Source: Verrucomicrobiota bacterium
GTDB taxonomy: Bacteria > Verrucomicrobiota > Verrucomicrobiia > Limisphaerales > UBA8199
Assembly: GCA_026397855.1 (NCBI GenBank)
Contig: JAPLUA010000264.1
Location: forward strand, 1 to 63,701
Direction of reading: 5' to 3'
Length of the DNA stretch: 63,701 nucleotides
Positions 17,626 through 37,110 of this stretch are shown here, piece after piece (within the stretch, counting starts at the first letter, position 1; the number at the start of each line of letters is the position of its first letter). The notes under the pieces are model-generated. The model had not been told where the DNA came from and ran no database searches. It was given only the letters and a program-made list of their open reading frames with translations. A program made the translations under genes and the position numbers.

Positions 17626-17952
17626 ATGAGCGCGAGAAGCATTGAAAATACCGGCCCACTGCAGCATGTCACCGTCGAGGCGCGCCAAACCAGGCTAACC
17701 CTCTCCCCTGGCTCGGTCATCATTCACAAGAATGGCATCGAATTCCGGAGCTCCACGCCCTTTGCCGCGTGGACCGAGATGACGATGACCCTCCAATCCC
17801 CGGTGGATGACGGCCGGATCAATTGCAGCGGTGTGGTTATTTCCTGCACGGGCAACAAGCACGCCGGCTACCAGGTCTCGATGGTTTTCACCAGCGTGTC
17901 CAAATACGCGCAAGCGCGCCTCAACACCATTGCGGAAGCGCGCCTTGGTTAG
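17626..17952 (+). CDS. small PilZ-like domain protein (degenerate c-di-GMP motifs)
   Basis: 108 aa with a beta-barrel-like pattern ending 'GYQVSMVFTSVSKYAQARL'. No clear RxxxR or D/NxSxxG motif. Confidence 0.4.
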   Translation: MSARSIENTGPLQHVTVEARQTRLTLSPGSVIIHKNGIEFRSSTPFAAWTEMTMTLQSPVDDGRINCSGVVISCTGNKHAGYQVSMVFTSVSKYAQARLNTIAEARLG

Positions 17953-18049
17953 CTCTTGCTGCGGAGAGCTACACACTTTTCCGGCGCTGGCAGCCTGCTG
18001 GCCCGGGCGGCGGATATTCCTGTCTGCCTTCGTAAGACCCCCACGTATC

Positions 18050-20752: not shown

Positions 20753-20767
20753 CCGCCTCTTTCGCTT

Positions 20768-21352
20768 ATGAAAATCACCCTTGCCTTGCTTTGCCTGGGC
20801 TTTCTCCTGGCCGCAAACGCGTTTGCCGGCCCGGATGTGATCATCAAGCAGCACGCTAAGGATATTCGGGACCAGAATAATGTCCGGCAAGGGGTTGCCC
20901 CTCCTGTCGTGCCGGTTCAGCCGGCAAACCCTTCCGTCGTAACTGCCACCCCCACAGCTTCGACTCCGGTGCAGAAAAGCCTCGCCAAACTGCGGGCCGA
21001 CCTCGTGGCCATCAAACCGGGTGCCCCGGTCACGCCCGAGCAAAAACAGCAGATTGCCAGGGATGTGCAGGCCACGGCCCAGGGCTCGAAGAAACCTTCC
21101 TACGGGACGGCCGCCGGCCTGGCCAATGAATTGTCAGCCGCCCTGGCACAAAAGTCCTTGTCCGATTCAGCCCTGAGCCGCCTGCTCACGGACCTTGCGG
21201 CTGTTCTCAACCCTGCAAACATACAGACGGCGCAGATGCAGGCCATTTGCTCCGACATCCGGGCCATCTTCGAGACCAACAGCCTGGCGCACAAAGACGC
21301 CGTCAAAATCGCCGATGCGGCCAAGGCCATTGCCGCTGAAACCCATCCCTGA
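20768..21352 (+). CDS. secreted hypothetical protein
   Basis: 194 aa with signal peptide 'MKITLALLCLGFLLAANAFAG'. No recognisable domain. Confidence 0.5.
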   Translation: MKITLALLCLGFLLAANAFAGPDVIIKQHAKDIRDQNNVRQGVAPPVVPVQPANPSVVTATPTASTPVQKSLAKLRADLVAIKPGAPVTPEQKQQIARDVQATAQGSKKPSYGTAAGLANELSAALAQKSLSDSALSRLLTDLAAVLNPANIQTAQMQAICSDIRAIFETNSLAHKDAVKIADAAKAIAAETHP

Positions 21353-21437
21353 GAACTGCTCGCGGAGCAATCTCCACCGACTTGGGCCCGGTCGGTTTGC
21401 AGGTTGCCCCCTTTTGTGCGAGGTTTGCACCCAATCC

Positions 21438-22127
21438 ATGCGACAAGAAAACTTTCGGCCAAAGCTAGACCTTCCCACCCGCCCGCCTGCGTATTCGGGG
21501 CCTCGGAAATCCCTCGGCCTTTTATCATTACTGTCCTTGCTCTTGCTCCTCACCCTCGTGACGGGGCTTTCCCAAACTGGCAATATGAACAACTCGACCA
21601 ACAACCTTGAGACCGCCACCCTTGGTGGCGGCTGTTTCTGGTGCACCGAAGCGATTTTTCAAATGCTGCCCGGCGTCAAGTCCGTGGTGAGCGGCTACGC
21701 GGGCGGAACCAGGGAGAATCCGACCTACAAGGAAGTCTGCTCCGGGGACACCGGTCACGCCGAGGTGATCCAGATCGCATACGATCCCGGGCTGGTCTCC
21801 TACGAGAAACTGCTGGAGACCTTTTGGGAAGCGCACGATCCGACCACCCTGAACCGGCAGGGGGGCGACACCGGGACCCAATACCGATCCATCATTCTCT
21901 ACGGCAACGAGGCCCAGAAGGCCGCCGCCGAAAAGTCAAAGGCCCGCGCGCAGAAGCATTTCGCCCAACCCATCGTGACGGAGATTGTGCCGCTGAAGAA
22001 GTTCTACCGGGGCGAGGACTACCACCAGGACTACTATCGCGGCAATCCCGGGCAGCCTTACTGCCGGGCGGTGATTCGTCCCAAGGTGGAGAAGTTCGAG
22101 CAGAAGCTCAAAGCCGCAGGGCATTGA
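21438..22127 (+). CDS. msrA: peptide-methionine (S)-S-oxide reductase MsrA with an export signal
   Basis: 'ATLGGGCFWCTEAIF', 'GHAEVIQIAYDP', 'YHQDYY'. ATG at 21438 gives a hydrophobic leader 'LGLLSLLSLLLLLTLV'. The ORF-track extension to 21195 overlaps the upstream gene. Confidence 0.9.
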   Translation: MRQENFRPKLDLPTRPPAYSGPRKSLGLLSLLSLLLLLTLVTGLSQTGNMNNSTNNLETATLGGGCFWCTEAIFQMLPGVKSVVSGYAGGTRENPTYKEVCSGDTGHAEVIQIAYDPGLVSYEKLLETFWEAHDPTTLNRQGGDTGTQYRSIILYGNEAQKAAAEKSKARAQKHFAQPIVTEIVPLKKFYRGEDYHQDYYRGNPGQPYCRAVIRPKVEKFEQKLKAAGH

Positions 22128-22169
22128 CTCGGCACAGCAGCCCGGCGCAATAAACTCCAGCGTGCCCGG

Positions 22170-22901
22170 TCAGCTTCGCGAGTGCCGCAGCCGGTGCGAG
22201 AGGACTGCCAGGCCTTCCGCCAGGTCCTCTTTTTGCACCACCACCCCATCGGGGATCTGCAGTTTCACGGGCGTGAAGTTCCAGATTCCCAGGATTCCGG
22301 CGCGGACCATCAGGTCGGCGGCCTCCTGCGCTGCTGCGACGGGCACGGTGAGCACGCCCAACGTGATGCCGAGCCGGCGAGCGAAGGGAGGAAGTTTGGG
22401 CATGGACTGCACGTGGCGGCCCTGGACCCAGGTCCCGATGAGTTTCGGGTCAGAATCAAAGGCCCCGGCAATCCTTAACCCCAGGTTCTCGAATCCGCGA
22501 TAGCCCAGCAGTGCTGTGCCAAGGTTGCCCACCCCAACCAACACAGCCTTGGTTTGATTGTTCCAGCCCAGGAAAGCCTCGATGGCGGCGATGAGTTCGG
22601 TGACGCGGAATCCGAGGCGCGGCGTGCCCGAGATGCCGGTCACCGCCAGGTCCTTGCGGACGATCACCGGCTCGAGATTGTGCGTGCTGGCCAGGACGGT
22701 GCCCGAGACGTGCTCGTGCCCCTCTCCCTGGAGCACGCGCAGGAGCTGCAGGTAGGCGGGCAGGCGCCGCACACACGCGGCCCCGGCCTTTTGGACCGCC
22801 TCGGGTGAGGGTGTGCCGGCTGGAGTGATCGCCCCCTGCAGGAGGGGATCTATGGCCTGGCTGCGCGGGCCCGCCTTGACGATTTGCGGTTTTGCTTTCA
22901 T
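22170..22901 (-). CDS. rex: redox-sensing transcriptional repressor Rex (paralog 1)
   Basis: wHTH 'RRLPAYLQLL...VIVRKDLA', Rossmann 'AVLVGVGNLGTALLGY', 'GILGIWNFTP'. Confidence 0.9.
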   Translation of the reverse strand: MKAKPQIVKAGPRSQAIDPLLQGAITPAGTPSPEAVQKAGAACVRRLPAYLQLLRVLQGEGHEHVSGTVLASTHNLEPVIVRKDLAVTGISGTPRLGFRVTELIAAIEAFLGWNNQTKAVLVGVGNLGTALLGYRGFENLGLRIAGAFDSDPKLIGTWVQGRHVQSMPKLPPFARRLGITLGVLTVPVAAAQEAADLMVRAGILGIWNFTPVKLQIPDGVVVQKEDLAEGLAVLSHRLRHSRS

Positions 22902-22967
22902 CAGATCATGGCGCCGCCGGCGTTGACAGCGCTTCTTGCTGTCGCTGGCGGCGGCGCGCTGGAAAGG

Positions 22968-22997
22968 ATATTACCCTGCTCAAACGGTGCATGACAA
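22968..22997 (-). promoter_or_regulatory. candidate promoter for rex paralog 1 (TTGTCA-N18-TAATAT on the minus strand)
   Basis: Minus-strand TTGTCA (plus 22992-22997) and TAATAT (plus 22968-22973), about 67 nt upstream of the ATG at 22901. Confidence 0.35.
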
Positions 22998-23104
22998 CCG
23001 GCGAATGAGGAATCAGCGGAGCAAAAGCATAAATTCTTTGGCGGCCTAACCTGTTTGGGTCAAGGCGCTTAGGCCCGCGGCCTTGCGAGGCGGCAAAATC
23101 CCCG

Positions 23105-23175
23105 TTGACAGGGTGACCCATTCGCGCTTTATATATCGATATATAGTTCTCGATAGATGTATAGCGATATGAGTG
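23105..23175 (+). promoter_or_regulatory. candidate rex2/hyd operon control region: TTGACA -35, AT-rich -10 zone, 14-bp perfect palindrome ATATATCGATATAT, three 14-bp-phased CGATA boxes
   Basis: TTGACA at 23105-23110. Palindrome at 23131-23144. (T)CGATA(T) recurs at about 23137, 23151 and 23165. A conspicuous AT island in a GC-rich genome. Confidence 0.45.
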
Positions 23176-23882
23176 TAACGAAGCAAATGGCGCCGGACAC
23201 GGCGAAGGCGGTGCCGGAGCCGACCCTGAAGCGCCTGCCGCTGTATCACCGCTTCCTCAAGGAGTGGCGGCAGGCCGGCAAAGAGTCGGTTTCCTGCACC
23301 GACATCGGCGAGGAGCTGAAGCTGGATCCGACGCAGGTGCGCAAGGACCTGGAGGCGGCGGGGATCAGCGGCCGGCCGCGCATCGGCTATGCCACCGCGG
23401 CGGTGGTGGATGGGATCGAGCTATTCCTGGGGTGGAAGAAGGTCAGCGAGGCGTTCCTGGTGGGGGCCGGGAGCATGGGCTCGGCGCTGCTGGGCTACCG
23501 CAAGTTCGAGGAGTGTGGCCTGAAGATCGTGGCGGCCTTTGACCGTGACCCGGGCAAGATCGGGCGGAAGATCCACGGCAAGCATGTGCTGGCGCTGGAT
23601 AAACTGGCCGACCTGACGCGGCGGATGCACATCCTGATCGGCATCATCACCGTTCCGGCGGCGGAGGCGCAGGCGGTGGCGGACGTGCTTGTGGCGGGCG
23701 GCGTGCGCGCCATCTGGAACTTTGCCCCGATACGGCTGCGGGTGCCCGAGCACCTCATCCTCCATAACGAAGACCTCTACTGTTCCCTGGCGTCCCTTTC
23801 GCAGAAGCTGGCCCAGGCGCTGGAGGCAAACCCGGCCGAGGCCGCGCCGGTTCGGAAAACACGAACGGCCACTTTCAATTAA
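23157..23882 (+). CDS. rex: redox-sensing transcriptional repressor Rex (paralog 2), first gene of the hyd operon
   Basis: 'LKRLPLYHRFL...TQVRKDLE', 'AFLVGAGSMGSALLGY', 'VRAIWNFAP'. Possible starts at 23157, 23169 and 23187. Only 27 nt separate it from hydC. Confidence 0.9.
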   Translation: MYSDMSVTKQMAPDTAKAVPEPTLKRLPLYHRFLKEWRQAGKESVSCTDIGEELKLDPTQVRKDLEAAGISGRPRIGYATAAVVDGIELFLGWKKVSEAFLVGAGSMGSALLGYRKFEECGLKIVAAFDRDPGKIGRKIHGKHVLALDKLADLTRRMHILIGIITVPAAEAQAVADVLVAGGVRAIWNFAPIRLRVPEHLILHNEDLYCSLASLSQKLAQALEANPAEAAPVRKTRTATFN

Positions 23883-23909
23883 CCACCCTTTAGAAACAGA
23901 GAATTACCT

Positions 23910-24437
23910 ATGACAGCCAAACGAAAGCCCGAAGGCACCGGCCGCAGATTTGTCAAAGTGTGCCATATACTGGACCAGCACAACCGCAACCCGGCGCGGC
24001 TGGTCCCCATCCTGCAGGCCGTGCAGGAGGAATACCGTTACCTGCCGCAGGAGGTGCTGACGTATGTCGCGACTGCGCTGGGCGTCTCGCCCGCGCGGGT
24101 CTATGGCGTGGCCACCTTCTACGCGCACTTCACCATCCTGCCGAAGGGCAAACATCTGGTCCGGCTGTGCGACGGCACGGCCTGCCACGTGAAGGAATCG
24201 GTGCCGATCCTGCGTGCGCTGCAAAAGCGGCTCGGAGTGGATGAGCAAAAGCGGCTCGGAGTGGATGACCGGCGCAAGACAACCGAGGACATGCTGTTCA
24301 CGGTGGAGACGGTCGCATGCCTGGGTGCCTGCGGCCTGGCGCCAGTCGTGGTGATAGACGACCAGGTTTACGGGCAACAGTCACCCGAAAGCGCGGTGAA
24401 GCTGGTGGAAGCCCTCATCACGCAGGAGGCCCAATGA
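23910..24437 (+). CDS. hydC: [FeFe]-hydrogenase HydC subunit (NuoE-like thioredoxin-fold [2Fe-2S] protein)
   Basis: 'ILQAVQEEYRYLP', 'GKHLVRLCDGTACH', 'ETVACLGACGLAPV'. Carries an in-frame 24-bp tandem duplication. Confidence 0.88.
   Translation: MTAKRKPEGTGRRFVKVCHILDQHNRNPARLVPILQAVQEEYRYLPQEVLTYVATALGVSPARVYGVATFYAHFTILPKGKHLVRLCDGTACHVKESVPILRALQKRLGVDEQKRLGVDDRRKTTEDMLFTVETVACLGACGLAPVVVIDDQVYGQQSPESAVKLVEALITQEAQ
24221..24268 (+). repeat. perfect 2 x 24-bp tandem duplication inside hydC (in frame; QKRLGVDE/QKRLGVDD)
   Basis: GCAAAAGCGGCTCGGAGTGGATGA at 24221-24244 is repeated exactly at 24245-24268. Confidence 0.95.
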
Positions 24438-26317
24438 GCGCACAAAGTCTGCCCCACCCGAACGGAAACAACGGCCACACGGCGCAACGGCGGGTCATCG
24501 TATGCGCGGGGACCGGCTGCGTGGCCAGCGGGGCCTACAAGGTTTTCCAGGCCTTGGTGGATCAAGTGCGGGCCGCCGGCCTCCCGGTCATAACCGAGTT
24601 CCGGCCGGAGCATGAAGCCGACGCGGTGCGCCTGAACAAGAGCGGCTGCCAGGGTTTCTGCCAGATGGGGCCGCTGGTGACGGTGCTGCCCGAGAACCTG
24701 CTGTATAACAAGGTCCGCGTTGAGGACGTGGCGGCGATTGTGGCTGAGACGCTGGTCGCCGGTCGGCTGGTCGAGCGGCTTCTCTATGTGGATTCGACCA
24801 CCAAGAAGCGTTGCCGGGGCGTGGAAGAGATTCCGTTTTACCAGCGCCAGCAGAGGTTTGTGCTCCGTTCCTGCGGCACCATTGATCCGGAGAGCATTGA
24901 CGAGTATGTGCACCAGGGCGGCTACGCGGCGGCGAAGAAGGCTTACGTGCAGATGACGCCGGAACAGATTTGCCAGGAGATCACCCGATCGGGCCTGCGC
25001 GGCCGGGGCGGCGGCGGTTTCCCCACGGGGCGCAAGTGGGAGGCGGCCCGGAGTCAGCCCGAGGGAAAGAAATATGTGATCTGCAACGCGGATGAGGGGG
25101 ATCCGGGCGCGTTCATGAACCGCAGTGTGATGGAAGGAAACCCTCACAGCGTGCTGGAAGGGCTGATGATTGCCGCGCGCGCGATTGGCGCGGACGAGAC
25201 GCTGATCTACGTCCGGACCGAGTACCCGCTGGCGGTGCAACGCATGCGCAGCGCGGTCAAGGACGCAGAGGCGCGCGGTTTCCTGGGCGACAACGCTTTC
25301 GGGACCGGCCGACCGCTGCGGTGCGAGGTGATGGAAGGCGCGGGGGCGTTTGTGTGCGGCGAGGAGACCGCGATGATCGCCTCCATCGAGGGGCAGCGCG
25401 GCATGCCGCGGCCTAAACCGCCTTTCCCGGCCCAGAGCGGCCTTTGGGGCAAGCCGACCATCATCAACAACGTCGAAACCCTGGCGCACGCGGTCCGCAT
25501 TGTCAACGAAGGCGCCGAGCAATTCCGGACACTGGGCACGGCGGCCTCTCCGGGCACAAAGACGTTCGCACTGACCGGCCACGTCGCCAACACCGGGCTG
25601 GTGGAAGTGCCTTTCGGGGCCACGCTGCGAGAGGTGGTATTCGATATTGGGGGCGGCATTACGGATCGCCGCGGCAAGGTGACCCGGGATGGCTTCAAGG
25701 CGGTGCAGATCGGCGGGCCGTCGGGCGGCTGCCTCACGCGCGACCACCTGGATCTGCCGCTCGATTACGATTCCCTGCGCGGGGCAGGGGCCATGGTTGG
25801 CTCCGGCGGGTTGGTGGCGATGAACAGCAAGACCTGCATGGTGTCCAGCGCCCGGTTCTTCATGGACTTCACCCAGCGGGAGAGCTGCGGCAAGTGCGTG
25901 CTGTGCCGCGAGGGCACGCGCCAGATGCTGGCGTTGCTCGACGACATCATCGAAGGGCGCGCCACCGCCGGGACGCTGGAGCTGCTGCAGAAGCTGGCGT
26001 CGGCCGTGCAGAAAGGCTCGCTCTGCGGGCTGGGCAAGACGGCCCCCAATCCGGTCCTTTCCACCCTGCGCCACTTCCGCGAGGAATACGATGCGCACGT
26101 GTTTCACAAGCACTGTCCCACCGGACAATGCAAGGCGCTGGCAAAGCCGAGCATTGACCCGGCCAAATGCAAGGGCTGCACCGCCTGCGCGAAGAAGTGC
26201 CCCGTCAATGCCATCACCGGCGAAAGGAAGCAGGCGCACACGATCAACCAGGCGCTCTGCATCAAGTGCGGTGTCTGTGTGGACACCTGCAAACTGGACG
26301 CGGTCATTGGCGTATAG
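24434..26317 (+). CDS. hydB: [FeFe]-hydrogenase HydB subunit (NuoF-like NADH/FMN/Fe-S flavoprotein)
   Basis: N-terminal 2Fe-2S 'VCAGTGC...CQGFCQMGP', 'GLRGRGGGGFPTGRKW', 'ESCGKCVLCREG', C-terminal 2x 'CxxCxxCxxxCP'. ATGA overlap with hydC. Confidence 0.92.
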   Translation: MSAQSLPHPNGNNGHTAQRRVIVCAGTGCVASGAYKVFQALVDQVRAAGLPVITEFRPEHEADAVRLNKSGCQGFCQMGPLVTVLPENLLYNKVRVEDVAAIVAETLVAGRLVERLLYVDSTTKKRCRGVEEIPFYQRQQRFVLRSCGTIDPESIDEYVHQGGYAAAKKAYVQMTPEQICQEITRSGLRGRGGGGFPTGRKWEAARSQPEGKKYVICNADEGDPGAFMNRSVMEGNPHSVLEGLMIAARAIGADETLIYVRTEYPLAVQRMRSAVKDAEARGFLGDNAFGTGRPLRCEVMEGAGAFVCGEETAMIASIEGQRGMPRPKPPFPAQSGLWGKPTIINNVETLAHAVRIVNEGAEQFRTLGTAASPGTKTFALTGHVANTGLVEVPFGATLREVVFDIGGGITDRRGKVTRDGFKAVQIGGPSGGCLTRDHLDLPLDYDSLRGAGAMVGSGGLVAMNSKTCMVSSARFFMDFTQRESCGKCVLCREGTRQMLALLDDIIEGRATAGTLELLQKLASAVQKGSLCGLGKTAPNPVLSTLRHFREEYDAHVFHKHCPTGQCKALAKPSIDPAKCKGCTACAKKCPVNAITGERKQAHTINQALCIKCGVCVDTCKLDAVIGV

Positions 26318-26335
26318 GCCGCCTGCCAACAGAGC

Positions 26336-28322
26336 ATGAAACCGACAGACATCAAACCATTTGAAGGCAATATGACTACCACTGTAGCTGCAAAGACATT
26401 GACCATTGACGGGCGCGAGGTGCCATTCAACGGCGAGCGCAACCTGCTGGAGCTGATTCGAAAAGCGGGCATTGACCTGCCGACCTTCTGCTATCATTCG
26501 GAGCTCAGCGTCTATGGGGCTTGCCGCCTCTGCCTGGTGGATATCCAGGGCCGCGGCATCCAGGGCGCCTGCTCGACGCCTCCTGAAGCCGGCCTGAAGG
26601 TGCGCACGCAGACGGAAGAGATTCGCGACATCCGGAAGATCACGATTGAGCTGCTCCTGGCCAACCATGACCAGCAGTGCCCGACCTGCCCGAAGAGCTC
26701 GGCCTGCCAGCTCCAGGATATTGCCCGCAAGCTGGGCATCCGCAAGGTCCGCTTCAAGCCCGTGCACCAGCCCGCGGAGCTGGACCTCTCGTCGGTTTCG
26801 CTGGTGCGCGGTCCGAACAAGTGTGTGCTATGTGGGGATTGCGTGCGCTTCTGCGAGGAGATCCAGGGCGTTGGCGCCATTGATTTCGCCCATCGGGGTC
26901 ACGAGGCGGCCGTGCTGCCCGCCTTTGGTAAAGGTTTGGGCGAGGGCGAGTGCATCAACTGCGGCCAATGCGCCGCGGTCTGTCCCACCGGTGCGCTGAC
27001 GCCGCGGCCCGAAGTGGACGAGGTCTGGCGCGCGCTCAACGACCCGGTCAAGACCGTGGTAGCCCAGCTCGCCCCGGCGGTGCGGGTGGCGATCGGCGAA
27101 GCCTTCGGCCTGGCCCCCGGCATGTCGGCCAGCGGCCAAATCGTGGCGGCGCTGAAGCGCCTCGGGTTTGACAAGGTTTACGACACCGCCTTCAGCGCCG
27201 ACCTGACGGTGGTTGAAGAGGCCAACGAGTTCCTGAAGCGGAAGGCCAAGGGCGAGAAGCTGCCGCAGTTCACCAGTTGCTGCCCGGGCTGGGTCAAGTT
27301 CGCCGAGCAGTATTTCCCCGAGCTGCTGCCAAACCTGTCGACATGCAAGTCGCCGCAGCAGATGCTCGGGGCGCTGTGCAAGGCCACCCTGCCGGGCGAG
27401 ATGGGCATTCCGAGGGAGAACCTCGTCATGGTTTCCATCATGCCCTGCACCGCCAAGAAGTTCGAGGCCAAGCGGCCCGAAGTTCCGCTTCAAGGAACTC
27501 GAACCCGAGTCCTTCGATATGCCGCTCGGCTTCAAGACCGGCGCCGGGGTCATCTTCGGCAACTCGGGAGGCGTAAGCGAAGCGGTCCTGCGATATGCCG
27601 CCGAATCGGTCACCAAGCGGAAGCTGGAGAACCCGGATTTCCACGCGGTGCGCGGCGAGGACGGGATCCGCCTGGCCACGGTCGCCCTGGACGGGGTGCA
27701 ACTCAAGCTGGCCGTGGTGCATGGATTGAAGAATGCCCGCACGCTGGCGGAGAAAGTGCGCCGGGGCGAATGCGAGCTGGACCTCATCGAGGTAATGGCT
27801 TGCCCGGGCGGTTGCATTGGCGGCGCCGGCCAGCCGGTGTCGCGCGAACGCGATATCAAGCGCTTGCGCACCCGGGGCCTGTATGAAGCCGACAAGCATC
27901 TGGACCTGCATAAGTCCCAGGAAAACCATCACGTGACAGAGATGTACCAGACCTATCTGGGCGAAATCGGCGGGCGCAAGGCCCATCACCTCCTGCACAC
28001 CCACTATCAGAACCGGCGGCGCATCGCAGATGAGCGGCTCGTGTTCGGCGACGGGCCTGACGGGGAGAAGCTCAAGGTCAGCGTGTGCGCGGGCACCAAC
28101 TGCTTCCTGAAAGGCTCGCAGGAGGTAATCCGCGACGTGCTCCAATGCGTCGAAGCCCAGGAACTGCAAGACCAGGTCGAAGTGAGCGCTTCGTTCTGCT
28201 TCGAGAAATGCGACCAGGGCCCGACCGTCCGGGTGGACGGCCAGCAAATCCAGCACTGCACTGGCCAGAAGGCGTGCGCCGCAATGCGCGAGCGCCTGAA
28301 GGCCAAACTCGCGCCCGAGTGA
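26336..28322 (+). pseudogene. hydA: [FeFe]-hydrogenase catalytic subunit HydA, interrupted by an out-of-frame internal deletion near 27480
   Basis: N-terminal Fe-S domains plus P1 'FTSCCPGW' and P2 'IMPCTAKKFEA' read in frame A until 'AKRPE'. 'FKELEPESFDMPLGFKTGAGVIFG...' and P3 'IEVMACPGGCIGGAGQP', plus a C-terminal 2Fe-2S domain, continue in another frame (ORF 27519-28322). Confidence 0.85.
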
Positions 28323-28347
28323 GCGCGCCACGGAGAGACATCCTTTT

Positions 28348-29757
28348 ATGAAAACGACACGTTCCAACCAACAGGCCACCTTCATTGACGAAGCCAAGAT
28401 CGCCGCGACGCTCGCCTCGGCGCGGGCCTGCGATGCCAGCCAGGTCCGTGAGATCCTGGCCAAGGCGCGCGAAATGAAGGGCCTGGCCGCCTCCGACATG
28501 GCGACGCTGATGGAGAACAACGACCCCGGGTTGTTGGAGGAGATGTATGCCACGGCCCGGCATGTGAAGGACGAGATTTACGGCAACCGCCTGGTGCTGT
28601 TCGCCCCGCTCTATATCTCGAACCTGTGCCACAACGAGTGCCTTTACTGTGCGTTCCGCGCGCGCAACAAAGAGCTGCTCAGGCGCACGCTAACCCCGGA
28701 GGAGATCGCGAATGAGACGAGCATTCTCATCGAGCAGGGGCATAAGCGCGTGCTGCTGGTCTCGGGTGAAAGCTATCCGGAGGAAGGCTTTGATTATGTC
28801 CTCAAGGCGATCGAGACGGTTTACAGTACCCGCAGCGGGCGCGGGGAAATCCGCCGCATCAACGCGAACGTGGCGCCGCTGAGCGTCGAGGACTATAAGC
28901 GGCTCAAGGCGGCGAAGATCGGGACATACCAGTGCTTCCAGGAGACCTATCACCGTGGGACTTACGCCGCCGTGCATGTCGCCGGGACGAAGCGGGACTT
29001 CGACTGGCGGGTGACCTGCTTTGACCGCGCGATGCAGGCGGGCATTGATGACGTGGGGATCGGGGTGCTGTTTGGGCTTTACGACTGGAAGTACGAAGTG
29101 CTCGCGATGAAGCAGGAGATTGAGCACCTCGAAGGCGCTTTCGGCGTGGGGCCGCACACCATCAGCGTGCCCAGGATCGAGCCGGCGGTCGGTTCGACCC
29201 TGGCTTACGCGCCGGCTCATCCGGTCTCGGACGGCGACTTCAAGAAGATCGTGGCACTGCTGCGCCTGGCGGTGCCCTACACCGGCATCATTATGTCCAC
29301 GCGGGAAAACGCTGCCACGCGCCGGGCGACATTCGAGCTGGGTGTTTCCCAGATCTCGGCTGGCAGCCGTTGCGACCCGGGCGGCTACGCCGCATCGGCC
29401 GACGGGCACAACTCGGAGCAGTTCCAGTTGGGGGATCACCGCTCGCTGGACGAGGTGGTGCGCGACGTGGCGGCGCTCGGCTATACGCCTTCGTTTTGCA
29501 CGGCGTGCTATCGGCTGGGGCGCACTGGGGCCGATTTCATGGACCTGGCCAAACCCGGCCTGATCAAACATCACTGCGCGCCCAATGCGCTGTCGAGCTG
29601 CATGGAATACCTGCTGGACTACGCGAAGCCGGAGACGCGCAAGGTGGGCGAAAGCCTGGTCGCGCGTGAGCTGGAGACGATGGAGCCCTCGGTGCAGGAG
29701 ATTGGCCGGCGCCTGGTGACGGAGGTGCAGGAGGACAAACGGGATGTTTATGTATAA
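28348..29757 (+). CDS. hydG: [FeFe]-hydrogenase maturase HydG (radical SAM tyrosine lyase)
   Basis: 'LYISNLCHNECLYCAFRA' radical SAM motif and the C-terminal auxiliary-cluster motif 'CTACYRLGRTG...HHCAPNA'. GGAGAG SD upstream. Confidence 0.9.
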   Translation: MKTTRSNQQATFIDEAKIAATLASARACDASQVREILAKAREMKGLAASDMATLMENNDPGLLEEMYATARHVKDEIYGNRLVLFAPLYISNLCHNECLYCAFRARNKELLRRTLTPEEIANETSILIEQGHKRVLLVSGESYPEEGFDYVLKAIETVYSTRSGRGEIRRINANVAPLSVEDYKRLKAAKIGTYQCFQETYHRGTYAAVHVAGTKRDFDWRVTCFDRAMQAGIDDVGIGVLFGLYDWKYEVLAMKQEIEHLEGAFGVGPHTISVPRIEPAVGSTLAYAPAHPVSDGDFKKIVALLRLAVPYTGIIMSTRENAATRRATFELGVSQISAGSRCDPGGYAASADGHNSEQFQLGDHRSLDEVVRDVAALGYTPSFCTACYRLGRTGADFMDLAKPGLIKHHCAPNALSSCMEYLLDYAKPETRKVGESLVARELETMEPSVQEIGRRLVTEVQEDKRDVYV

Positions 29758-29776
29758 AGGCTGTGTTTAGGGACCC

Positions 29777-31285
29777 ATGAGCGCTTTTCGCACTGAATCC
29801 GATCTGTTGGGCGAGTTGCCGATCCCGGCGGCCGCCCTGCACGGCATTCATACGGCCCGCGCGCTGGACAACTTTCCGCTGGCGTTGCAGCCGGTGGCCC
29901 CGGGCCTGGTCCGGGCGTACGGGACGGTGAAGCTGGCCTGCGCCATGACCAACCGCGCGCTTGGGGCCTGGGCGGATGATGCTCCCAAGGCAGACGCGAT
30001 CGAGCGCGCCTGCCGCGAGCTGGGCGAAGGTTTGCTGGACCGGCAGCTGGGCGAAGGTTTGCTGGACCGGCACATCGTGGTGGACCGGTTGCAGGGCGGG
30101 GCAGGGACCAGCACGAACATGAACGTTAACGAGGTGCTGGCCAATCGTGCGCTGGAGCTGCTCGGCGAACCGCCGGGCACTTATGGCCGCGTATCTCCGC
30201 TGGAGGATATCAACCTGCATCAGTCCACCAACGACACCTACCCGACGGCTTTGCGGCTGGCCGCAATCGTTGCCTTGCGCGAGTTGGAGCGGCGCGTGGT
30301 GGCGCTGCAGGAAGCCTTCCAGGCCGCTGAAAAACGCTTCGCGCATGTCGTCAAGGTCGGCCGGACCCAATTGCAGGACGCCGTGCTGACGACCCTGGGA
30401 CGTGAGATGGGGGCGTATGCCGAGGCGATGAACCGTGACCGCTGGCGGATCTACAAATGCGAGGAGCGTCTGCGGGTCGTCAATCTTGGGGGCACCGCCA
30501 TCGGCACCGGGCTGGCGGCGCCGCGCCAGTTCATCTTCCGGGTGACCGATACGCTGCGTGAGCTTGCCGGGATTGGTTTTGCCCGCGCGGAGAACCTCGT
30601 GGACGCCACGCAGAATGCGGACGTGTTCGTGGAGGTGTCCGGCATCCTGAAAGCGCACGCCGTTTCCCTGCTGAAGATCTGCGGCGACCTGCGGCTGATG
30701 GCTTCGGGGCCGGAAGCCGGGCTGCGCGAGATCCGCCTGCCCGCCCGCCAGGCCGGCTCGTCCATCATGCCGGGCAAGGTGAACCCGGTCATCCCCGAGG
30801 CAGTCAGCCAGGTGGCCATGCTGGTGATGGGCCACGACGCGACCATCGCCTCCGCCTGCGCCGCCGGCAGCCTGGAGCTGAATCCGTTTCTGCCCCTGGT
30901 GGCCGCTTGCCTGCTGGAAAGCCTGGAACTGTTGGGCCGGGCCGACGACATTCTCTGCCGCCATTGCGTTTCGGGTCTGGAAGCCGACGAGGCACGCTGC
31001 CGCCAGCATGTGCTCAACTCGACCGCCGCGGCGACGGCGTTGCTGCCGGCGCTTGGCTATGACCGGGTTTGCGAATTGGCGCGGTCGAGCGCTGAGACCG
31101 GCCGCACCGTCCGCGAGCTTGCGATCACGAATGGCTGGCTCTCGGCCGCGGCGTTCGATGAGCTGATCAGCCCTGAAGCCGTTTGCCGGCTTGGCACGCC
31201 GGACCTGCCGCACCCCGATCCCGACACGGGGCGCGCGGACGCACGCGCCAAGGCCGACGACTGCAAACAGGAGGCGAAGCCATGA
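29777..31285 (+). CDS. aspartate ammonia-lyase-like class II fumarate-lyase-family enzyme embedded in the hyd maturase operon
   Basis: 'FRTESDLLGELPIP', 'QGGAGTSTNMNVNEV', 'TQLQDAV', signature 'GSSIMPGKVNP'. ATGA overlap with hydF. Contains an in-frame 27-bp duplication. Confidence 0.85.
   Translation: MSAFRTESDLLGELPIPAAALHGIHTARALDNFPLALQPVAPGLVRAYGTVKLACAMTNRALGAWADDAPKADAIERACRELGEGLLDRQLGEGLLDRHIVVDRLQGGAGTSTNMNVNEVLANRALELLGEPPGTYGRVSPLEDINLHQSTNDTYPTALRLAAIVALRELERRVVALQEAFQAAEKRFAHVVKVGRTQLQDAVLTTLGREMGAYAEAMNRDRWRIYKCEERLRVVNLGGTAIGTGLAAPRQFIFRVTDTLRELAGIGFARAENLVDATQNADVFVEVSGILKAHAVSLLKICGDLRLMASGPEAGLREIRLPARQAGSSIMPGKVNPVIPEAVSQVAMLVMGHDATIASACAAGSLELNPFLPLVAACLLESLELLGRADDILCRHCVSGLEADEARCRQHVLNSTAAATALLPALGYDRVCELARSSAETGRTVRELAITNGWLSAAAFDELISPEAVCRLGTPDLPHPDPDTGRADARAKADDCKQEAKP
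30019..30072 (+). repeat. perfect 2 x 27-bp tandem duplication inside the aspA-like gene (in frame; LGEGLLDRQ/LGEGLLDRH)
   Basis: GCTGGGCGAAGGTTTGCTGGACCGGCA at 30019-30045 is repeated exactly at 30046-30072. Confidence 0.95.
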
Positions 31286-32577
31286 CAGCTCCCGCGCCCA
31301 AGGGCCTGCGGCTGCATATTGCGCTTTTTGGAAGGCGCAACGTGGGTAAGTCCAGCATGCTCAATGCGGTAACGCATCAGCAGCTCTCGATTGTCTCGCC
31401 CATTGCCGGCACGACCACCGACCCGGTAGAAAAGCCGATGGAACTGCTGCCTCTGGGGCCCGTCCTCTTTGTGGATACCGCTGGGGTAGACGATGCGGGG
31501 ACGTTGGGTGAGCTGCGGGTGCAGAAGACGCGCCAGGTGCTGGACCGGGCCGACTTGGGGGTGGTCGTGGCGGAAGCAGGCCAATGGGGCGAGTTCGAAG
31601 AGCAGCTTCTGGTCGAGCTCGCGGGCCGGAAGATTCCTGCGATCGTCGTGTTCAATAAGGCGGATGCTGCCGAGCCGGATCCTCTGCTGTGGGAGCAGTT
31701 GGGGCAACGGCAACTGCGCCGCGTGCGCGTCAGCGCGCTCCAGCACACCGGCATCGCGGAGTTCCGGCAAGCGCTGCTCGAAGCCGCGCCCGCGGATTTC
31801 ATTGATCATCCTGCCATCCTCGGCGATCTGGTCGGCCCGGGCGAAATGGCGGTGCTGGTGGTGCCGATTGACAAGGAGGCGCCGCGCGGTCGGTTGATAC
31901 TGCCCCAGGTGCAGGCTATTCGAGACCTGCTGGACAACGATGCCTTTTGCCTGGTCGTGAAGGAGCGCGAGCTGCGCAGCGCGCTGGATCGGCTTAAGAG
32001 CCCTCCCCGGCTCGTCGTGACCGATTCACAGGCCTTCTTGAAGGTCGCCGCCGACACTCCGCGCGAGGTGCCGTTGACCAGCTTTTCGATCCTGATGTCG
32101 CGCTTCAAAGGGGATTTGACGGTACAGGTGCAGGGTGCGCTGGCCATTGAGAATCTGCGTGGCGGGGACCGCGTCCTGATCGCGGAAGCCTGCTCGCACC
32201 ATCCGATTGGCGAGGACATTGGCAGGGTGAAGATCCCCCGCTGGCTGACCCAGTTTGTGGGGGGACAGCTCCATTTCGAGCATGTGCAGGGGCATGATTT
32301 TCCAGCGGACCTCTCGCCGTATCGCCTGGTGGTGCATTGCGGGGCCTGCATGTGGAATCGCCGCGAAATGCTCGGCCGGATCCTGCGCTGCCAGCAAGCT
32401 GGCGTGCCTGTGACCAACTACGGTCTGGCCATCGCCTACAGCCTGGGCATCTTCGAGCGGGCGCTGGAGCCGTTTCCGGCGGCGCTGGAGCTCTGGCGCA
32501 ACGCCGCGCGAAACCCCGCAGCCCGGATGCCGGCACCCGCTTCAGCACCCCGGGAAAGGAGCGCGTGTTCTGCATGA
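31282..32577 (+). CDS. hydF: [FeFe]-hydrogenase maturase HydF (GTPase scaffold)
   Basis: 'IALFGRRNVGKSSMLNA', 'DTAG', 'NKAD', C-terminal 'CSHHP...HCGACM' cluster motif. Confidence 0.9.
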   Translation: MTAPAPKGLRLHIALFGRRNVGKSSMLNAVTHQQLSIVSPIAGTTTDPVEKPMELLPLGPVLFVDTAGVDDAGTLGELRVQKTRQVLDRADLGVVVAEAGQWGEFEEQLLVELAGRKIPAIVVFNKADAAEPDPLLWEQLGQRQLRRVRVSALQHTGIAEFRQALLEAAPADFIDHPAILGDLVGPGEMAVLVVPIDKEAPRGRLILPQVQAIRDLLDNDAFCLVVKERELRSALDRLKSPPRLVVTDSQAFLKVAADTPREVPLTSFSILMSRFKGDLTVQVQGALAIENLRGGDRVLIAEACSHHPIGEDIGRVKIPRWLTQFVGGQLHFEHVQGHDFPADLSPYRLVVHCGACMWNRREMLGRILRCQQAGVPVTNYGLAIAYSLGIFERALEPFPAALELWRNAARNPAARMPAPASAPRERSACSA

Positions 32578-33647
32578 ACGCGCCGCTCACGCTCACAGAC
32601 ATCCTGGCCTGGCTCCGGGAGGACGATCCGGCGCGGCTCAAGACGCTTTGGGCCCGAGCTGATGAGACCCGCCGCCTGAACGTGGGCGACACCATCCATT
32701 TGCGAGGGCTGGTTGAGATTTCGAGCTGGTGCGTCCGCCAGTGCGCCTACTGTGGGCTGAGGGTGGACAACCAATCGCTGACCCGCTACCGGATGGAGCC
32801 GGGAGAGATCCTGGAGTCGGCGCGCCAGGCAGTGGCGTTTGGCTATGGCACGGTCGTGCTTCAGGCCGGCGAAGATTTCGGCCTGACCTGCGAATGGGTT
32901 GCCGACGTGGTCAGGCAAATCAAGAACGAGACGCCGCTGGCTGTCACTCTAAGCCTGGGTGAGCGGACCGAAGCCGAACTGGACGCCTGGCGCAAGGCCG
33001 GGGCGGATCGCTACCTCCTGCGCTTCGAAACCTCGGACCAGGCCCTGTTCGAGCTGATTCACCCGCGCCGGAACCCGGATGCCGCGGGCCGCATCCCCTT
33101 GCTCCGCCAGCTTAAGCAACTCGGTTACGAGGTCGGCAGCGGGATAATGGTCGGCCTGCCGGGCCAGACTTACGAGAGCGTGGCCCGTGACATTGATCTA
33201 TTTCGCGAGCTGGACCTGGACATGATCGGCATCGGGCCGTTCATTCCGCATCCACAGACCCCGCTGGGCACCGGCGAACTGAAGCCCGTTATTGAGCCCG
33301 ACGAGCAGGTGCCCAACACCGAACTGATCGTGTATAAGGCAGTGGCCCTCACCCGCCTCGTGCGTCCGGACGCCAACATCCCCAGTACGACAGCCCTTGC
33401 CACCATCAACAAGCGCAATGGGCGGGAACTGGGGTTGCAGCGGGGCGCCAACGTGCTCATGCCCAATCTGACGCCGGCTAAATACCGGAAGCTTTACGAG
33501 ATCTACCCCGCCAAAGCCTGCATCGAGGAAACCGGAAGTGCCTGCAACGGCTGTCTCCGGATGCGGATAACCGCAATCGGACGCCAGATTGCCCAAGGCC
33601 CCGGCGGTAGGAAACGGCATGCGCAGGAAAGGGATGTGTTGTGTTAG
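32574..33647 (+). CDS. hydE: [FeFe]-hydrogenase maturase HydE (radical SAM)
   Basis: 'VEISSWCVRQCAYCGLR'; BioB-like fold and length (357 aa). ATGA overlap with hydF. Confidence 0.88.
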   Translation: MNAPLTLTDILAWLREDDPARLKTLWARADETRRLNVGDTIHLRGLVEISSWCVRQCAYCGLRVDNQSLTRYRMEPGEILESARQAVAFGYGTVVLQAGEDFGLTCEWVADVVRQIKNETPLAVTLSLGERTEAELDAWRKAGADRYLLRFETSDQALFELIHPRRNPDAAGRIPLLRQLKQLGYEVGSGIMVGLPGQTYESVARDIDLFRELDLDMIGIGPFIPHPQTPLGTGELKPVIEPDEQVPNTELIVYKAVALTRLVRPDANIPSTTALATINKRNGRELGLQRGANVLMPNLTPAKYRKLYEIYPAKACIEETGSACNGCLRMRITAIGRQIAQGPGGRKRHAQERDVLC

Positions 33648-33658
33648 ACCGCGCGTTA

Positions 33659-33860
33659 CGAAATCCGAAGGCCGAAGCCCGAAATCCGAAGGAAGGCCGA
33701 AGCCCGAAATCCGAAAAGCGGCGTGTCAACGGGTCACCAAAGGGGCTGGCTGTCCAGGCGCTGATGGGAACTTTCGCAGCCTGCTACGAGTGTGGCGTGA
33801 GGGCTTCAGCCTTCGGATTTCGGCCTTCCTTCGGATTTCGGCATTCGGCATTCGGATTTA
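33659..33860. repeat. ~200-bp MITE-like element with ~45-bp terminal inverted repeats built from CCGAA/CGAAGCCC units
   Basis: 33661-33705 is the near-perfect reverse complement of 33815-33859 (about 3 mismatches). The arms are internally iterated (GAAATCCGAAGG...). Confidence 0.8.
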
Positions 33861-33869
33861 CCCCTCCCC

Positions 33870-34133
33870 ATGTCCCCTGAACCTCTCAACTCCATCATGA
33901 TCTGCATGGGCAGCTCGTGCTTTTCGCGCGGCAACAACCGGAACATTGAAGTGATCCAGGAGCACCTCGCGGCCCAGCCGCTCCCGGCGGGGGTTGAACT
34001 CACCGGCCACCTGTGCGAAGGCCACTGCAAGGCGGGTCCGAACGTCACGATCAACGGCAAGATGTATCACGAGGTGGACCCCATCGTCATCATCGGCCTG
34101 CTCAACCACTACAGCCAGCAACGAGAGGGATAA
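33870..34133 (+). CDS. small thioredoxin-like [2Fe-2S] ferredoxin
   Basis: 87 aa; 'ICMGSSCF' (Cx4C) and 'LCEGHCKAGPNV' (Cx3C), the same pattern as the NuoE-type domains in HydB/HydA. Confidence 0.8.
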   Translation: MSPEPLNSIMICMGSSCFSRGNNRNIEVIQEHLAAQPLPAGVELTGHLCEGHCKAGPNVTINGKMYHEVDPIVIIGLLNHYSQQREG

Positions 34134-34140
34134 ACTTCCT

Positions 34141-35930
34141 GTGAACTTCCTGAATCCCATCTACACGGAAAAGCGCGAATGCCAGGATTGCTACAAGTGC
34201 GTTCGGCATTGTCCCGTCAAAGCCATCAAGGTGGAGGGCGGTTACGCCTCGGTGGTTCCGGAGCTGTGCATCCTGTGCGGGCACTGTGTGGAGGTCTGTC
34301 CGAACTCGGCCAAGCGGGTGCGGGATGATCTGTCCCAGGCGCGGCAACTGCTCGCGCTCAAGCCGCGCGTGCTGGTATCGCTGGCCCCCTCTTATGTGAG
34401 CGAGTTTCCGGAACTGCAACCCGGCCAGCTCATTCGCGCCTTCAAACGGCTCGGCTTTTCCGGAGTTTCCGAGACCGCCCTGGGCGCCCAGCAGGTCTCC
34501 GCTCAGGCTGCCGCCGCCCTGGCGGAAGGCAGCGGGCGAGTGCTCTATTCCTCGGCCTGCCCGACGGTGGTGAGCTACCTGCAGAAGCATCGGCCCGCCG
34601 ACTCGCAATACCTCACCGGGCTGCTTTCGCCGTTGCTGACGCACTGCAAGATGCTGCGGCAGGGCTTCGGGCAGGACATCGGCATCGTGTTTGTCGGTCC
34701 GTGCATCGCCAAGAAGCTCGAAGCCGCCCAGCATCCGGCATTGCTGGATGTCGCGCTCACCTTCGACGACTTGCGCCGGTGGCTGACGCAGGAGCAGATC
34801 ATGCCGGAGACACTGGCGGCTGAGGCCGGGGATAGCTTCATCCCGGAGCACTCCGCTGAAGGCGCGTGGTATCCGGTGGACGGGGGCATGATCGCGGGAA
34901 TGAAATCCATCTGTGCGGTGAACGATTGCTCGTTCATGGCCTTCTCCGGCATCAACGCTATCCAGAAGGCGATCGAGGGGTTGGGCACCCAGCCGATGGA
35001 CGGAAGCCTGTTCCTGGAGTTGCTCGCGTGCGAGGGCGGCTGCGTGAACGGTCCGCGCGCCGCCAAACGGTATGGCACGGCCGCCAAGCGCCGCCGGGTG
35101 CTTCGGGCGGTGGTGGCGCCCCCGCCGATGCTCCCGCGCCAGTCCAGCCTGGACATCCAGTCCATATTCGCCGTAGCGCCCCAGCCGCTGCTCAAGTTTT
35201 CCGAGTCGCAGATCCGGGAAGCCCTGCGTGCGGTCGGCAAGATTTCACGGGATGACGAGCTGGACTGTGGCGGCTGCGGTTACAATTCGTGCCGCGAGTT
35301 TGCCGGGGCGCTCATCCAGCAAAAGGCGGAACGCGCCATGTGCGTCACCTACATGCGCAAGCTGGCGCTGAAGAAGGCGAACGCCCTCATTCAGAAGATG
35401 CCCTCGGCCGTCGTGATCATCAACGACGCGATGCGCATCATCGAATACAACACCGCCTTCGCCACCCTGTTCGCCTGCAACGTGGCGCCGGCGGGCTCAC
35501 CCCCGACGGGCGCGTCTCTGGAAGGGGTGATGCTGAGCGAGATCATGCCCTTCGCCAACCTCTTCCACGCCGTGCTGAAGAGCGGCGAGGACATCCTGGA
35601 TCGGGACCTCCGCTACCAGAAGACCATTCTGCACTCCGCTACCAGAAGACCATTCTGCATGCCGGTATTTTCACCATTGAAAAGCACTGCGTGGTGGGCG
35701 GCATCCTGCAGGACATCACGGAGCCGGCCGTCCGGAAGGCGGAGGTGATCCGCAAGGCGCAGGAGGTCATCCAGCGCAGCCTGCAGACCACGCAGACCAT
35801 CGCCTGCCTGCTGGGCGAGAGCGCCGCCGAAACCGAGATCACCCTCAACTCGATCATCGAATCCTTTTCGCCCGCCAAACTGGAGGAGCCCAAGCATGAG
35901 AACGATTGGCGAAAGCTTTATAGACGTTGA
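34141..35930 (+). pseudogene. hydS: HydS-type putative sensory [FeFe]-hydrogenase (Fd domain, H-domain, Cx2Cx4Cx16C, PAS), frameshifted by a 26-bp tandem duplication
   Basis: GTG at 34141 after a GAGAGGG SD. 'CQDCYKCVRHCP', 'CILCGHCVEVCP', 'SSACPTV', 'GPCIAKKLE', 'ELLACEGGCVNG', 'CGGCGYNSC-x16-C'. The frame switches at the duplication; ORF 35289-35930 carries the C-terminus '...LRYQKTILHAGIFTIEKH...DITEP'. Confidence 0.88.
35608..35659 (+). repeat. perfect 2 x 26-bp tandem duplication inside hydS (frameshifting)
   Basis: CTCCGCTACCAGAAGACCATTCTGCA at 35608-35633 is repeated exactly at 35634-35659. Deleting one copy fuses ORFs 33994-35748 and 35289-35930 in frame. Confidence 0.95.
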
Positions 35931-37077
35931 TTCCTCCCAGCGCGCCAAGGCCGGCCAGGTGGTCTCCGGTGACGTCTTCCTCTCGCGGCGCATCAAGCCC
36001 GAGGGGCGCATCATCTCCATCCTCTCGGACGGTCTGGGCAGCGGCGTCAAGGCCAGCGTGCTGGCGAACCTGACGGCCACGATGGCGCTGCGGTACACGT
36101 CGGCCTTTGTGGATGTCCGCAAGAGCGCGGGCACCATCATGGACACCCTGCCGATCTGCGAGGTCCGCAAAATCAGCTACTCCACGTTCACCATCGTTGA
36201 CCTGGATGAGCGGGGCCATGCCCGGGCGATTGAGCACGGCAACCCCGCCCTGGTGCTGATGCGCGGCCAGAGGGCGCTGCCGCTGGAGCGGGTGGACATC
36301 ACCCTGGATAATTGGAAGGATCGCACCATCAGCTACAGCGAGTTTGATGTCCAACTGGGCGACCGGATTGTCTGCGCCTCAGACGGCATCAGCCAATCGG
36401 GGTTGGGCCGCAAGGGCCTGCCGCTCGGCTGGGGCAGCGAGAACTTCGTCCGCTTCCTGTCGCAGCAGGTAGGGCAGGAGCCGGAAATCTCTTCGCAGGA
36501 ACTCTCCCGGAAGGTCGTCGCCGAGGCCCTGGTGAACGACGGCGCCGCCGCCAAGGACGACATGACCTGCGGCGTGGTTTACTACCGTCACCCGCGCCGG
36601 CTCCTGGTCATCACCGGGCCGCCCTTCTGCAAGGAGCGCGATGGCGAATTGGCGGAGATGGCGGAGTCGTTTCCCGGGAGCAAAGCCATCTGCGGCGGCA
36701 CCACCGCCAATATCATCTCGCGCCTGCTCAACCGGCCGGTTCGCGCCTGTCTGGCCAAACTCGATCCGGAGATACCCCCGCCGGCCTTAATGCAGGGCAT
36801 TGACCTGATCACCGAAGGGACCATGACCCTCGCGCGCGTCGCGGAAATGCTGGAGCGCGGCGCGCAGCAACCGTGGCCCGACAACGCGGCCCGCGACCTG
36901 CTGGCCCTGATGCTCCGGAGCGATGTCGTCGAGTTTGTGGTCGGCACGCGCATCAATGAGGCTCACCAGGACCCGAATGTGCCGGTTGAGCTCGACCTGC
37001 GCCGCAATATCATCCGCCGCATCGTCGGGCTGCTGGAGAGCAAACACCTCAAGGAGTGTTCCGTCCGGTTCCTCTGA
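35896..37077 (+). CDS. SpoIIE/PP2C-family Ser/Thr phosphatase with a ~160-aa C-terminal domain of unknown function
   Basis: 'SGDVF', 'ILSDGLGSGVKASV', 'GDRIVCASDGIS', 'KDDMTCGVV' PPM motifs. GGAGG SD 8 nt upstream. Overlaps the hydS 3' end by 35 nt. Confidence 0.85.
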   Translation: MRTIGESFIDVDSSQRAKAGQVVSGDVFLSRRIKPEGRIISILSDGLGSGVKASVLANLTATMALRYTSAFVDVRKSAGTIMDTLPICEVRKISYSTFTIVDLDERGHARAIEHGNPALVLMRGQRALPLERVDITLDNWKDRTISYSEFDVQLGDRIVCASDGISQSGLGRKGLPLGWGSENFVRFLSQQVGQEPEISSQELSRKVVAEALVNDGAAAKDDMTCGVVYYRHPRRLLVITGPPFCKERDGELAEMAESFPGSKAICGGTTANIISRLLNRPVRACLAKLDPEIPPPALMQGIDLITEGTMTLARVAEMLERGAQQPWPDNAARDLLALMLRSDVVEFVVGTRINEAHQDPNVPVELDLRRNIIRRIVGLLESKHLKECSVRFL

Positions 37078-37110
37078 GCTCGCGAGCCAATCCCACCGCC
37101 CATAAAACGA

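Follow-up and report, generated by a model that had tools for sequence, protein, structure and literature searches.

Introduction

Slipped-strand contingency loci carry many copies of units of 1–7 nt and are polymorphic within populations. In metagenomes, the main cause of assembly fragmentation is the co-existence of closely related strains (Chen et al., 2020; PMC7111523). Both phenomena are relevant to contig JAPLUA010000264.1 (63,701 nt, analysed here at its full length and hereafter called the window), which belongs to a metagenome-assembled genome (MAG) of a Verrucomicrobiota bacterium. Five indel lesions were found in this window, four of them in a gene cluster for an electron-bifurcating-type [FeFe] hydrogenase (hyd cluster) and one in the gene of an ABC ATPase.

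The original prediction, made from the letters of the window, had offered three readings of these lesions: relaxed selection with decay of H2 metabolism, a reversible phase switch driven by slippage, and scaffolding or gap-closing artefacts in a hard-to-assemble or strain-heterogeneous region. It had added that the sequence alone could not separate them. That caution is fair, but a comparison with independent assemblies favours the third reading. We consider that the five lesions are probably assembly artefacts that arose from wrong contig joins (probability about 0.8), and that in all likelihood the finding does not reflect a biological feature. What speaks for this explanation is that the lesions are private to one record, that haplotypes switch at two junctions, that the contigs of other assemblies break at or close to three of the lesions, and that the sequence was probably produced with MEGAHIT and IDBA-UD.

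The five lesions

Tandem duplications were searched for with Tandem Repeats Finder (TRF) and by exhaustive exact search over all 63,701 bases. Perfect two-copy tandem duplications with units of at least 12 nt number exactly four in the whole window (Table 1). Three of these are the duplications that the original prediction had claimed for hydC (+24 bp), the aspartate ammonia-lyase-like (aspA-like) gene (+27 bp) and hydS (+26 bp), and the fourth, a perfect 22-bp duplication, is the comparable lesion that it had placed in the ABC ATPase gene. The proposed out-of-frame deletion in hydA was also recovered: 77 nt are absent from the window in comparison with every relative examined, and Pfam divides the Fe_hyd_lg_C domain between two frames.

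Across the four duplications, the exact-match run exceeds the unit length by 0, 0, 0 and 1 nt. Because the run equals the unit, there is no microhomology at the junctions. With lengths of 24, 27, 22, 26 and 77 nt, the lesions do not favour in-frame changes, and essential motifs are struck, namely the Walker A motif of the ABC ATPase and, in hydA, the region just after MPCxxKKxE. The two copies of each duplication are identical.

In-silico repair, in which one copy was removed from each duplication and the 77 nt were put back into hydA, gave uninterrupted open reading frames (ORFs) of 167, 675, 493, 587 and 261 aa for hydC, hydA, the aspA-like gene, hydS and the ABC ATPase gene, respectively. 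The repaired lengths of the first four equal those of their orthologues. For the ABC ATPase, the repaired 261 aa compare with 255 aa in the sole orthologue call, and this difference fits an alternative start codon.

The lesions belong to the public record, since the deposited NCBI proteins MCX6891646.1 (HydC, 175 aa) and MCX6891650.1 (AspA-like, 502 aa) contain the duplications. Planted or synthetic lesions are ruled out by the same observation. The proteins deposited for the contig run from MCX6891627 to at least MCX6891667, under locus tags NTX51_xxxxx.

Table 1. Positions of the lesions, adjoining haplotype blocks, genes and repeat elements in the window, with the 40-nt sequence spanning each lesion junction.
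Feature	Position	Strand	Remarks	Basis	Junction 40-mer
24-bp x2 duplication, hydC	24221–24268	+	junction 24244/24245; in frame; +8 aa (QKRLGVDE)		AAGCGGCTCGGAGTGGATGAGCAAAAGCGGCTCGGAGTGG
77-nt deletion, hydA	27481/27482	+	frameshift just 3' of the MPCTAKKFE H-cluster motif; no microhomology		CGAGGCCAAGCGGCCCGAAGTTCCGCTTCAAGGAACTCGA
27-bp x2 duplication, aspA-like gene	30018–30072	+	in frame; +9 aa		CGAAGGTTTGCTGGACCGGCAGCTGGGCGAAGGTTTGCTG
26-bp x2 duplication, hydS	35608–35659	+	frameshift		TACCAGAAGACCATTCTGCACTCCGCTACCAGAAGACCAT
22-bp x2 duplication, ABC ATPase Walker A motif	58348–58391	+	frameshift		TCTCGGCCCGAACGGCGCGGTTTCTCGGCCCGAACGGCGC
hydC-side haplotype block	24131–24215	+	10 window-private substitutions in 85 nt, just left of the junction; 9 at third positions, 8 synonymous		
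hydA-side block	27503–27590	+	4 window-private substitutions (3 synonymous) within 108 nt right of the junction		
Gene cluster holding four lesions	23910–37077	+		Pfam; NCBI names for MCX6891646-656	
Rex-family regulator	22170–22901	-		Pfam/NCBI names	
Rex-family regulator	23157–23882	+		Pfam/NCBI names	
hydC	23910–24437	+		Pfam/NCBI names	
hydB	24434–26317	+		Pfam/NCBI names	
hydA	26372–28322	+		Pfam/NCBI names	
hydG	28348–29757	+		Pfam/NCBI names	
aspA-like gene	29777–31285	+		Pfam/NCBI names	
hydF	31282–32577	+		Pfam/NCBI names	
hydE	32574–33647	+		Pfam/NCBI names	
Near-tandem 25-nt repeat, GAAGGCCGAAGCCCGAAATCCGAAG	33667–33715		in the spacer between hydE and the 87-aa ferredoxin gene (33650–33860); inverted partner at 33810–33856		
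fdx	33870–34133	+	87-aa [2Fe-2S] thioredoxin-like protein	Pfam/NCBI names	
hydS	34141–35930	+	HydS-type sensory hydrogenase	Pfam/NCBI names	
SpoIIE-family phosphatase	35896–37077	+		Pfam/NCBI names	
ABC ATPase	58228–59035	+		Pfam	

Intact alleles in related assemblies

The organism belongs to a population of the freshwater hypolimnion for which many assemblies exist. A search for one-copy alleles in related populations had been proposed with the original prediction, and at every site in the hyd cluster such a comparison returned the one-copy or intact allele, in 4–11 independent assemblies per site that are 97–99.96% identical to the window. At the hydC site, a single copy is present in the five loci L170 and L177–L180, as well as in the relatives L001–L007, and gene-length records give a HydC of 167 aa in six further contigs. 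The 77 nt missing from hydA are present in L081, L163, L164, L170 and L177, as well as in the relatives L001 and L003–L007. The aspA-like gene has a single copy in L163, L164, L161, L162 and L081, and its orthologue P0001 has 493 aa as compared with 502 aa in the window. At the hydS site, L163–L169 carry one copy, and HydS is 587 aa long in eight independent contigs. The ABC ATPase site is also single-copy in L183, which is the sole comparator there and only about 85% identical.

No relative shares any of the lesions over the identity range of 72–99.96%, and all five are derived relative to six to eleven relatives. Exact-protein look-ups with HydG, HydB, the permease and the GFO/IDH gene product gave no match apart from the source record.

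Census of duplications and background rate

Perfect tandem duplications of at least 20 nt occur four times in the 63.7-kb window, whereas 2.43 Mb of other public loci, most of them hyd clusters, contain only two distinct events. The density in the window is thus about 50-fold above this background. Exact duplications of at least 20 nt are essentially impossible by chance, and set against the background the lesions form a strong anomaly. The concentration in the hyd region, on which the original prediction had laid weight, stands as a count, with four of the five lesions lying within 11.4 kb, but it is statistically weak when taken alone: in a simulation of uniformly placed events, the scan statistic for four of five falling inside 11.4 kb of 63.7 kb gave p = 0.078.

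The claim that only one comparable lesion lies outside the hyd region held up. Pfam revealed no further split genes in the window, and alignment to relatives that are at least 99% identical revealed no further genic indels between 6.5 and 38.6 kb. Between 38.8 and 52.7 kb, the gene coordinates run at a constant offset to those of an independent 14.6-kb contig, i.e., the two are collinear. The census of other lesions in the window is therefore fairly complete.

Three further candidates were rejected. The class II aminoacyl-tRNA synthetase gene at 44848–46209 was considered for an N-terminal truncation, but its product is an asparagine-tRNA ligase of 453 aa whose short N-terminus is normal. The lesions were also checked for even spacing, which would suggest polishing-chunk boundaries, but the spacings of 3.2, 2.6, 5.6 and 22.7 kb are irregular. 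The third candidate was the 25-nt repeat downstream of hydE (Table 1), which TRF lists as an 'x2.0' array. It is intergenic and incomplete (24/25), and it is present in L163–L166; along this stretch, the window and these contigs differ by no indel and by a single private single-nucleotide polymorphism (SNP) at 33738. Since independent assemblies reproduce the repeat, it is native and can be used as a control for the lesions.

The same repeat shows some natural variation. It is kept in the 99% identical relatives L163–L166, and about 20 nt stand in its place in the 97% identical strain L161. Together with its inverted partner it could be a hairpin-forming element, either similar to repetitive extragenic palindromes (REP-like) or a terminator.

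Discontinuities at the junctions

A haplotype end or a contig end was found at or near the hydC, hydA, aspA-like and ABC ATPase junctions. At hydC, the window carries no private difference from 13609 to 24131 (10.5 kb), then the dense block of substitutions at 24131–24215, and from the junction to 25477 (1.2 kb) only one more, at 24422. The block is a genuine natural alternative allele and not noise; it is about 12% divergent and stops at the hydC junction. The smaller block on the right-hand side of the hydA junction is given in Table 1.

The contig ends come from other assemblers' products. Logan contig L181, which is 98.2% identical and stems from an unrelated run, has its first base at 58387, within the second copy of the ABC ATPase duplication, and L165 begins 58 nt upstream of the aspA-like duplication. 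In other assemblies, the HydC C-terminal fragments P0138–P0140 start 0–13 codons past the hydC junction, at the upstream border of the strongly conserved TEDMLFTVETVACLGACGLAP block.

One of these fragments, P0138, comprises only the last 57 aa of a HydC that is 93% identical, and it starts at the position of the hydC junction. It is encoded on a 63,878-nt ENA contig, which is nearly as long as the window and might be a related scaffold that is broken, or joined differently, at this point.

The five lesions are private to this record, and analogous join artefacts exist in other public scaffolds. L166, a scaffold of the same population from another project, has joins of ten N at 1027–1036 and 3674–3683, within hydE and hydS. 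At one of these joins 35 nt are absent, and 38 spurious nt stand before the other. L072 has 100-N gaps at 4129–4228, 15267–15366 and 17084–17183, each between identical 55-nt ends.

Split genes were also noticed in two assemblies of the same population, ERZ1426816 and ERZ1426838. In both, the aspA-like gene is divided into parts of 161 and 326 aa with the gene span unchanged, and in ERZ1426838 hydB is divided into 518 and 103 aa, again with an unchanged total span. These splits are probably due to N runs or point errors at joins in the hyd cluster.

A cluster shared between genomes and its assembly

Genomes that share the hyd cluster (about 22500–37100) at more than 99% identity have flanks with an identity of only about 88–93%. 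In L177, the flank corresponding to 19–22.5 kb is 7–12% divergent from the window, the identity switches at about 22.5–23.0 kb, and from about 23 kb into hydA the two are more than 99.5% identical; L178 behaves alike. L081 loses homology upstream of 27104, in the middle of hydA, and in an 18.9-kb contig the region upstream is a different one and holds a YdjC gene. The cluster is therefore near-identical across distinct co-occurring genomes and mosaic over short range. This pattern suggests that the hydrogenase cluster has recently been exchanged horizontally, or has undergone a gene-specific sweep, among Verrucomicrobiota that occur together in lakes. Alternatively, the pattern could stem from public contigs that are chimeric. 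A cluster that is both shared and mosaic in this way is expected to fragment a de Bruijn-graph assembly.

The most similar sequence found for the window is Logan contig L171, which was assembled from run SRR20698641 and differs at 3 of 7,440 nt (99.96% identity). L182, from another Lac Pavin run, is 99.67% identical. Neither of these two Logan contigs extends across a lesion; L171 stops at 22894 and L182 at 23008. In the supplement of Jaffe et al. (2023), SRR20698641 is sample LacPavin_0818_WC55 of project PRJNA852163. From identity, habitat and date we infer that the MAG containing the window comes from the Lac Pavin project. In that study, assembly was done with MEGAHIT and scaffolding with IDBA-UD (PMC9875498), and the same laboratory has reported IDBA-UD joins with overlapping, duplicated flanking sequences (PMC7111523). 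If the attribution is correct, the 'contig' is in fact a scaffold of MEGAHIT contigs.

A fixed k-mer overlap was rejected as the source of the duplications because the unit lengths of 22, 24, 26 and 27 nt are not constant. Three numerical agreements, which may be coincidences, were given no weight. The first two default k values of MEGAHIT are 21 and 29, and the unit lengths fall between them. In hydC, exactly 29 nt separate the last private SNP (24215) from the end of the first copy of the duplication, and the right-hand block in hydA starts 20 nt before its first private SNP.

Proposed origin of the lesions

In the explanation that we prefer, each lesion would mark a point where two contigs entered a scaffold without their true relation being resolved. 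Where the contig ends truly overlapped by 22–27 nt, joining them end to end would create a perfect tandem duplication. In hydA, about 77 nt of unassembled sequence would have been closed with nothing, leaving a deletion. The hyd cluster, being more than 99% identical in several divergent co-occurring genomes and changing haplotype over short distances, would have been assembled in fragments, and the scaffolder would have been forced into many joins there, which may account for four of the five lesions. The fifth join would have been made in the Walker A motif of the ABC ATPase, a sequence that recurs in many paralogues. On this account the joins would be located exactly at the lesions, and presumably no reads run across the copy-to-copy junctions.

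Several points weigh against this explanation. The window contains no N, whereas the documented IDBA-UD and SPAdes cases, as well as L072 and L166, keep a run of N between the flanks. The duplication lengths lie in a narrow range of 22–27 nt that fits no single k-mer size and that we could not derive from the software. The Lac Pavin pipeline is attributed through identity to an assembly of a read set and not through the metadata of the record. The comparators at the lesion sites are other strains (at best 99.0–99.6% identical), and it is assemblies that were compared, not reads. A haplotype switch is found at only two of the five junctions, and at the hydS junction no independent discontinuity of either kind was found.

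Biological explanations

The strongest competitor is that genuine mutations of very recent date, confined to the sequenced strain, gave rise to the lesions, i.e., a burst of microhomology-independent 22–27-bp duplications and a deletion, perhaps from error-prone repair or recombinational import, that inactivated HydABC and the sensor. We regard this as unlikely, although it has some merits. The lesions do stand in the deposited record, and their junctions contain no N. The flanking haplotype blocks are genuine, mostly synonymous natural variation, which means that recombination acts in the cluster, and the cluster bears signs of recent exchange between divergent genomes. On the other hand, one inactivating hit would have been enough, yet the 11-kb stretch contains four independent young events, all of the same unusual type, and a fifth lies in an unrelated ABC gene. 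Point or 1-bp lesions do not accompany them. A natural burst would also have to be reconciled with the lack of these lesions in any other assembly of the population, with the roughly 50-fold excess over background, and with the coincidence of the junctions with contig ends produced by other assemblers.

A more specific form of this idea is that the burst resulted from error-prone fill-in at staggered breaks while the hyd cluster was imported from a divergent strain, so that the electron-bifurcating [FeFe] hydrogenase was knocked out together with its sensor in a single event. Import-linked fill-in would explain why foreign haplotype blocks end exactly at two junctions, but this specific scenario seems more doubtful still than the burst in general.

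Longer-term relaxed selection, with pseudogenisation of H2 metabolism in the lineage, was the first of the three original readings and is now largely refuted; we consider it highly improbable. It does account for the presence of lesions in several genes of one pathway. However, relatives that are 97–99.96% identical do not share the lesions, and the signs of point-mutational decay are missing: there are no nonsense mutations and no 1-bp indels, the duplicated copies have not diverged, and the frames 3' of the frameshifts are open and about 99% identical to intact orthologues. The window-private substitutions in the cluster, 36 synonymous versus 17 non-synonymous, still show purifying selection. 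If decay were real, its onset would have to be extremely recent.

A reversible slippage phase switch of the hydrogenase, the sensor and the ABC transporter can be practically dismissed: the perfect tandem copies, two of the four shifting the frame, would suit it, but the other two duplications (24 and 27 nt) are in frame so that only the 22- and 26-nt units could toggle it, each array consists of just two long units and lacks flanking microhomology that could favour slippage, no copy-number polymorphism and no two-copy allele appear in the 4–11 independent assemblies per hyd-cluster site, the hydA deletion is irreversible, and the units lie in conserved catalytic motifs where they would be damaging even when in frame.

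Gene content and other features of the window

Pfam and NCBI protein names type the genes of the affected region as an electron-bifurcating-type [FeFe] hydrogenase supercluster with the standard make-up (Table 1). Two genes for Rex-family redox-sensing repressors lie in divergent orientation immediately 5' of hydC, an arrangement that fits NADH-responsive control of a hydrogenase operon.

The spacer between hydG and the aspA-like gene (29758–29776) varies between assemblies. It is 19 nt long in the window, L081, L161 and L162, and 241 nt long in L163 (3694–3934) and L164; in more distant relatives it measures 88–225 nt. In contrast to the lesions, this is a natural indel polymorphism that several assemblies have in common.

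Two arrays of 11-nt units were also found. A perfect array of 4.1 copies (GAAACGACCTT, 20–64) lies at the start of the contig and may be the reason why the contig ends at that point. An imperfect array of 4.8 copies (CCCATCGAAGC, 60933–60985) lies at the 5' end of an ORF for a 928-aa oxidoreductase (60850–63636).

Implications and comparison with known systems

If the lesions are artefacts, the biology of the organism is ordinary, and an intact HydABC hydrogenase, the HydEFG maturases and a HydS-type sensor are almost certainly present. Any loss of hydrogenase or phase switching deduced from the record would then be wrong. MCX6891646.1 and MCX6891650.1 would carry spurious insertions of 8 and 9 aa, and hydA, hydS and the ABC ATPase gene would only seem to be broken. 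Further errors of this kind probably exist in the rest of this MAG and in other MAGs from the pipeline. The practical value of the finding is to warn that gene models in a public MAG have been corrupted, and such joins could be flagged by a simple screen for perfect tandem duplications of 20–30 bp that have no microhomology and are missing from sister assemblies. If the lesions are real, they would reflect an unusual, clustered mutational process linked to recombination.

Among known biological systems, slipped-strand contingency loci resemble the window in that a change in tandem copy number within a coding region is able to shift the frame. They differ from it in unit and copy number: in the window, units of 22–27 nt occur in two copies, two of the four duplications keep the frame, and independent assemblies show no polymorphism. 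Pseudogenisation during reductive evolution resembles it in that several genes of one functional cluster are disrupted. In the window, however, the signs of decay are absent, the signature of selection is kept, the lesions are of one young type, and sister strains have none of them.

The closest likeness is to scaffolding errors. The documented IDBA-UD and SPAdes joins have a run of N between the copies, which the window lacks, and in the window the duplicated lengths of 22–27 nt correspond to no fixed k, and one join lost 77 nt rather than duplicating sequence. SPAdes scaffold gaps have duplicated flanks of length k. L072, with its 55-nt ends repeated at three gaps, and L166 belong to the same class of join error. 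The local assembly errors described for IDBA-UD and CLC likewise have a perfect duplication on both sides of the join (Chen et al., 2020, Genome Res 30:315; PMC7111523). As in the proposed origin of the lesions described here, these errors arise where strain variants or repeats end contigs, and they corrupt coding genes in public records.

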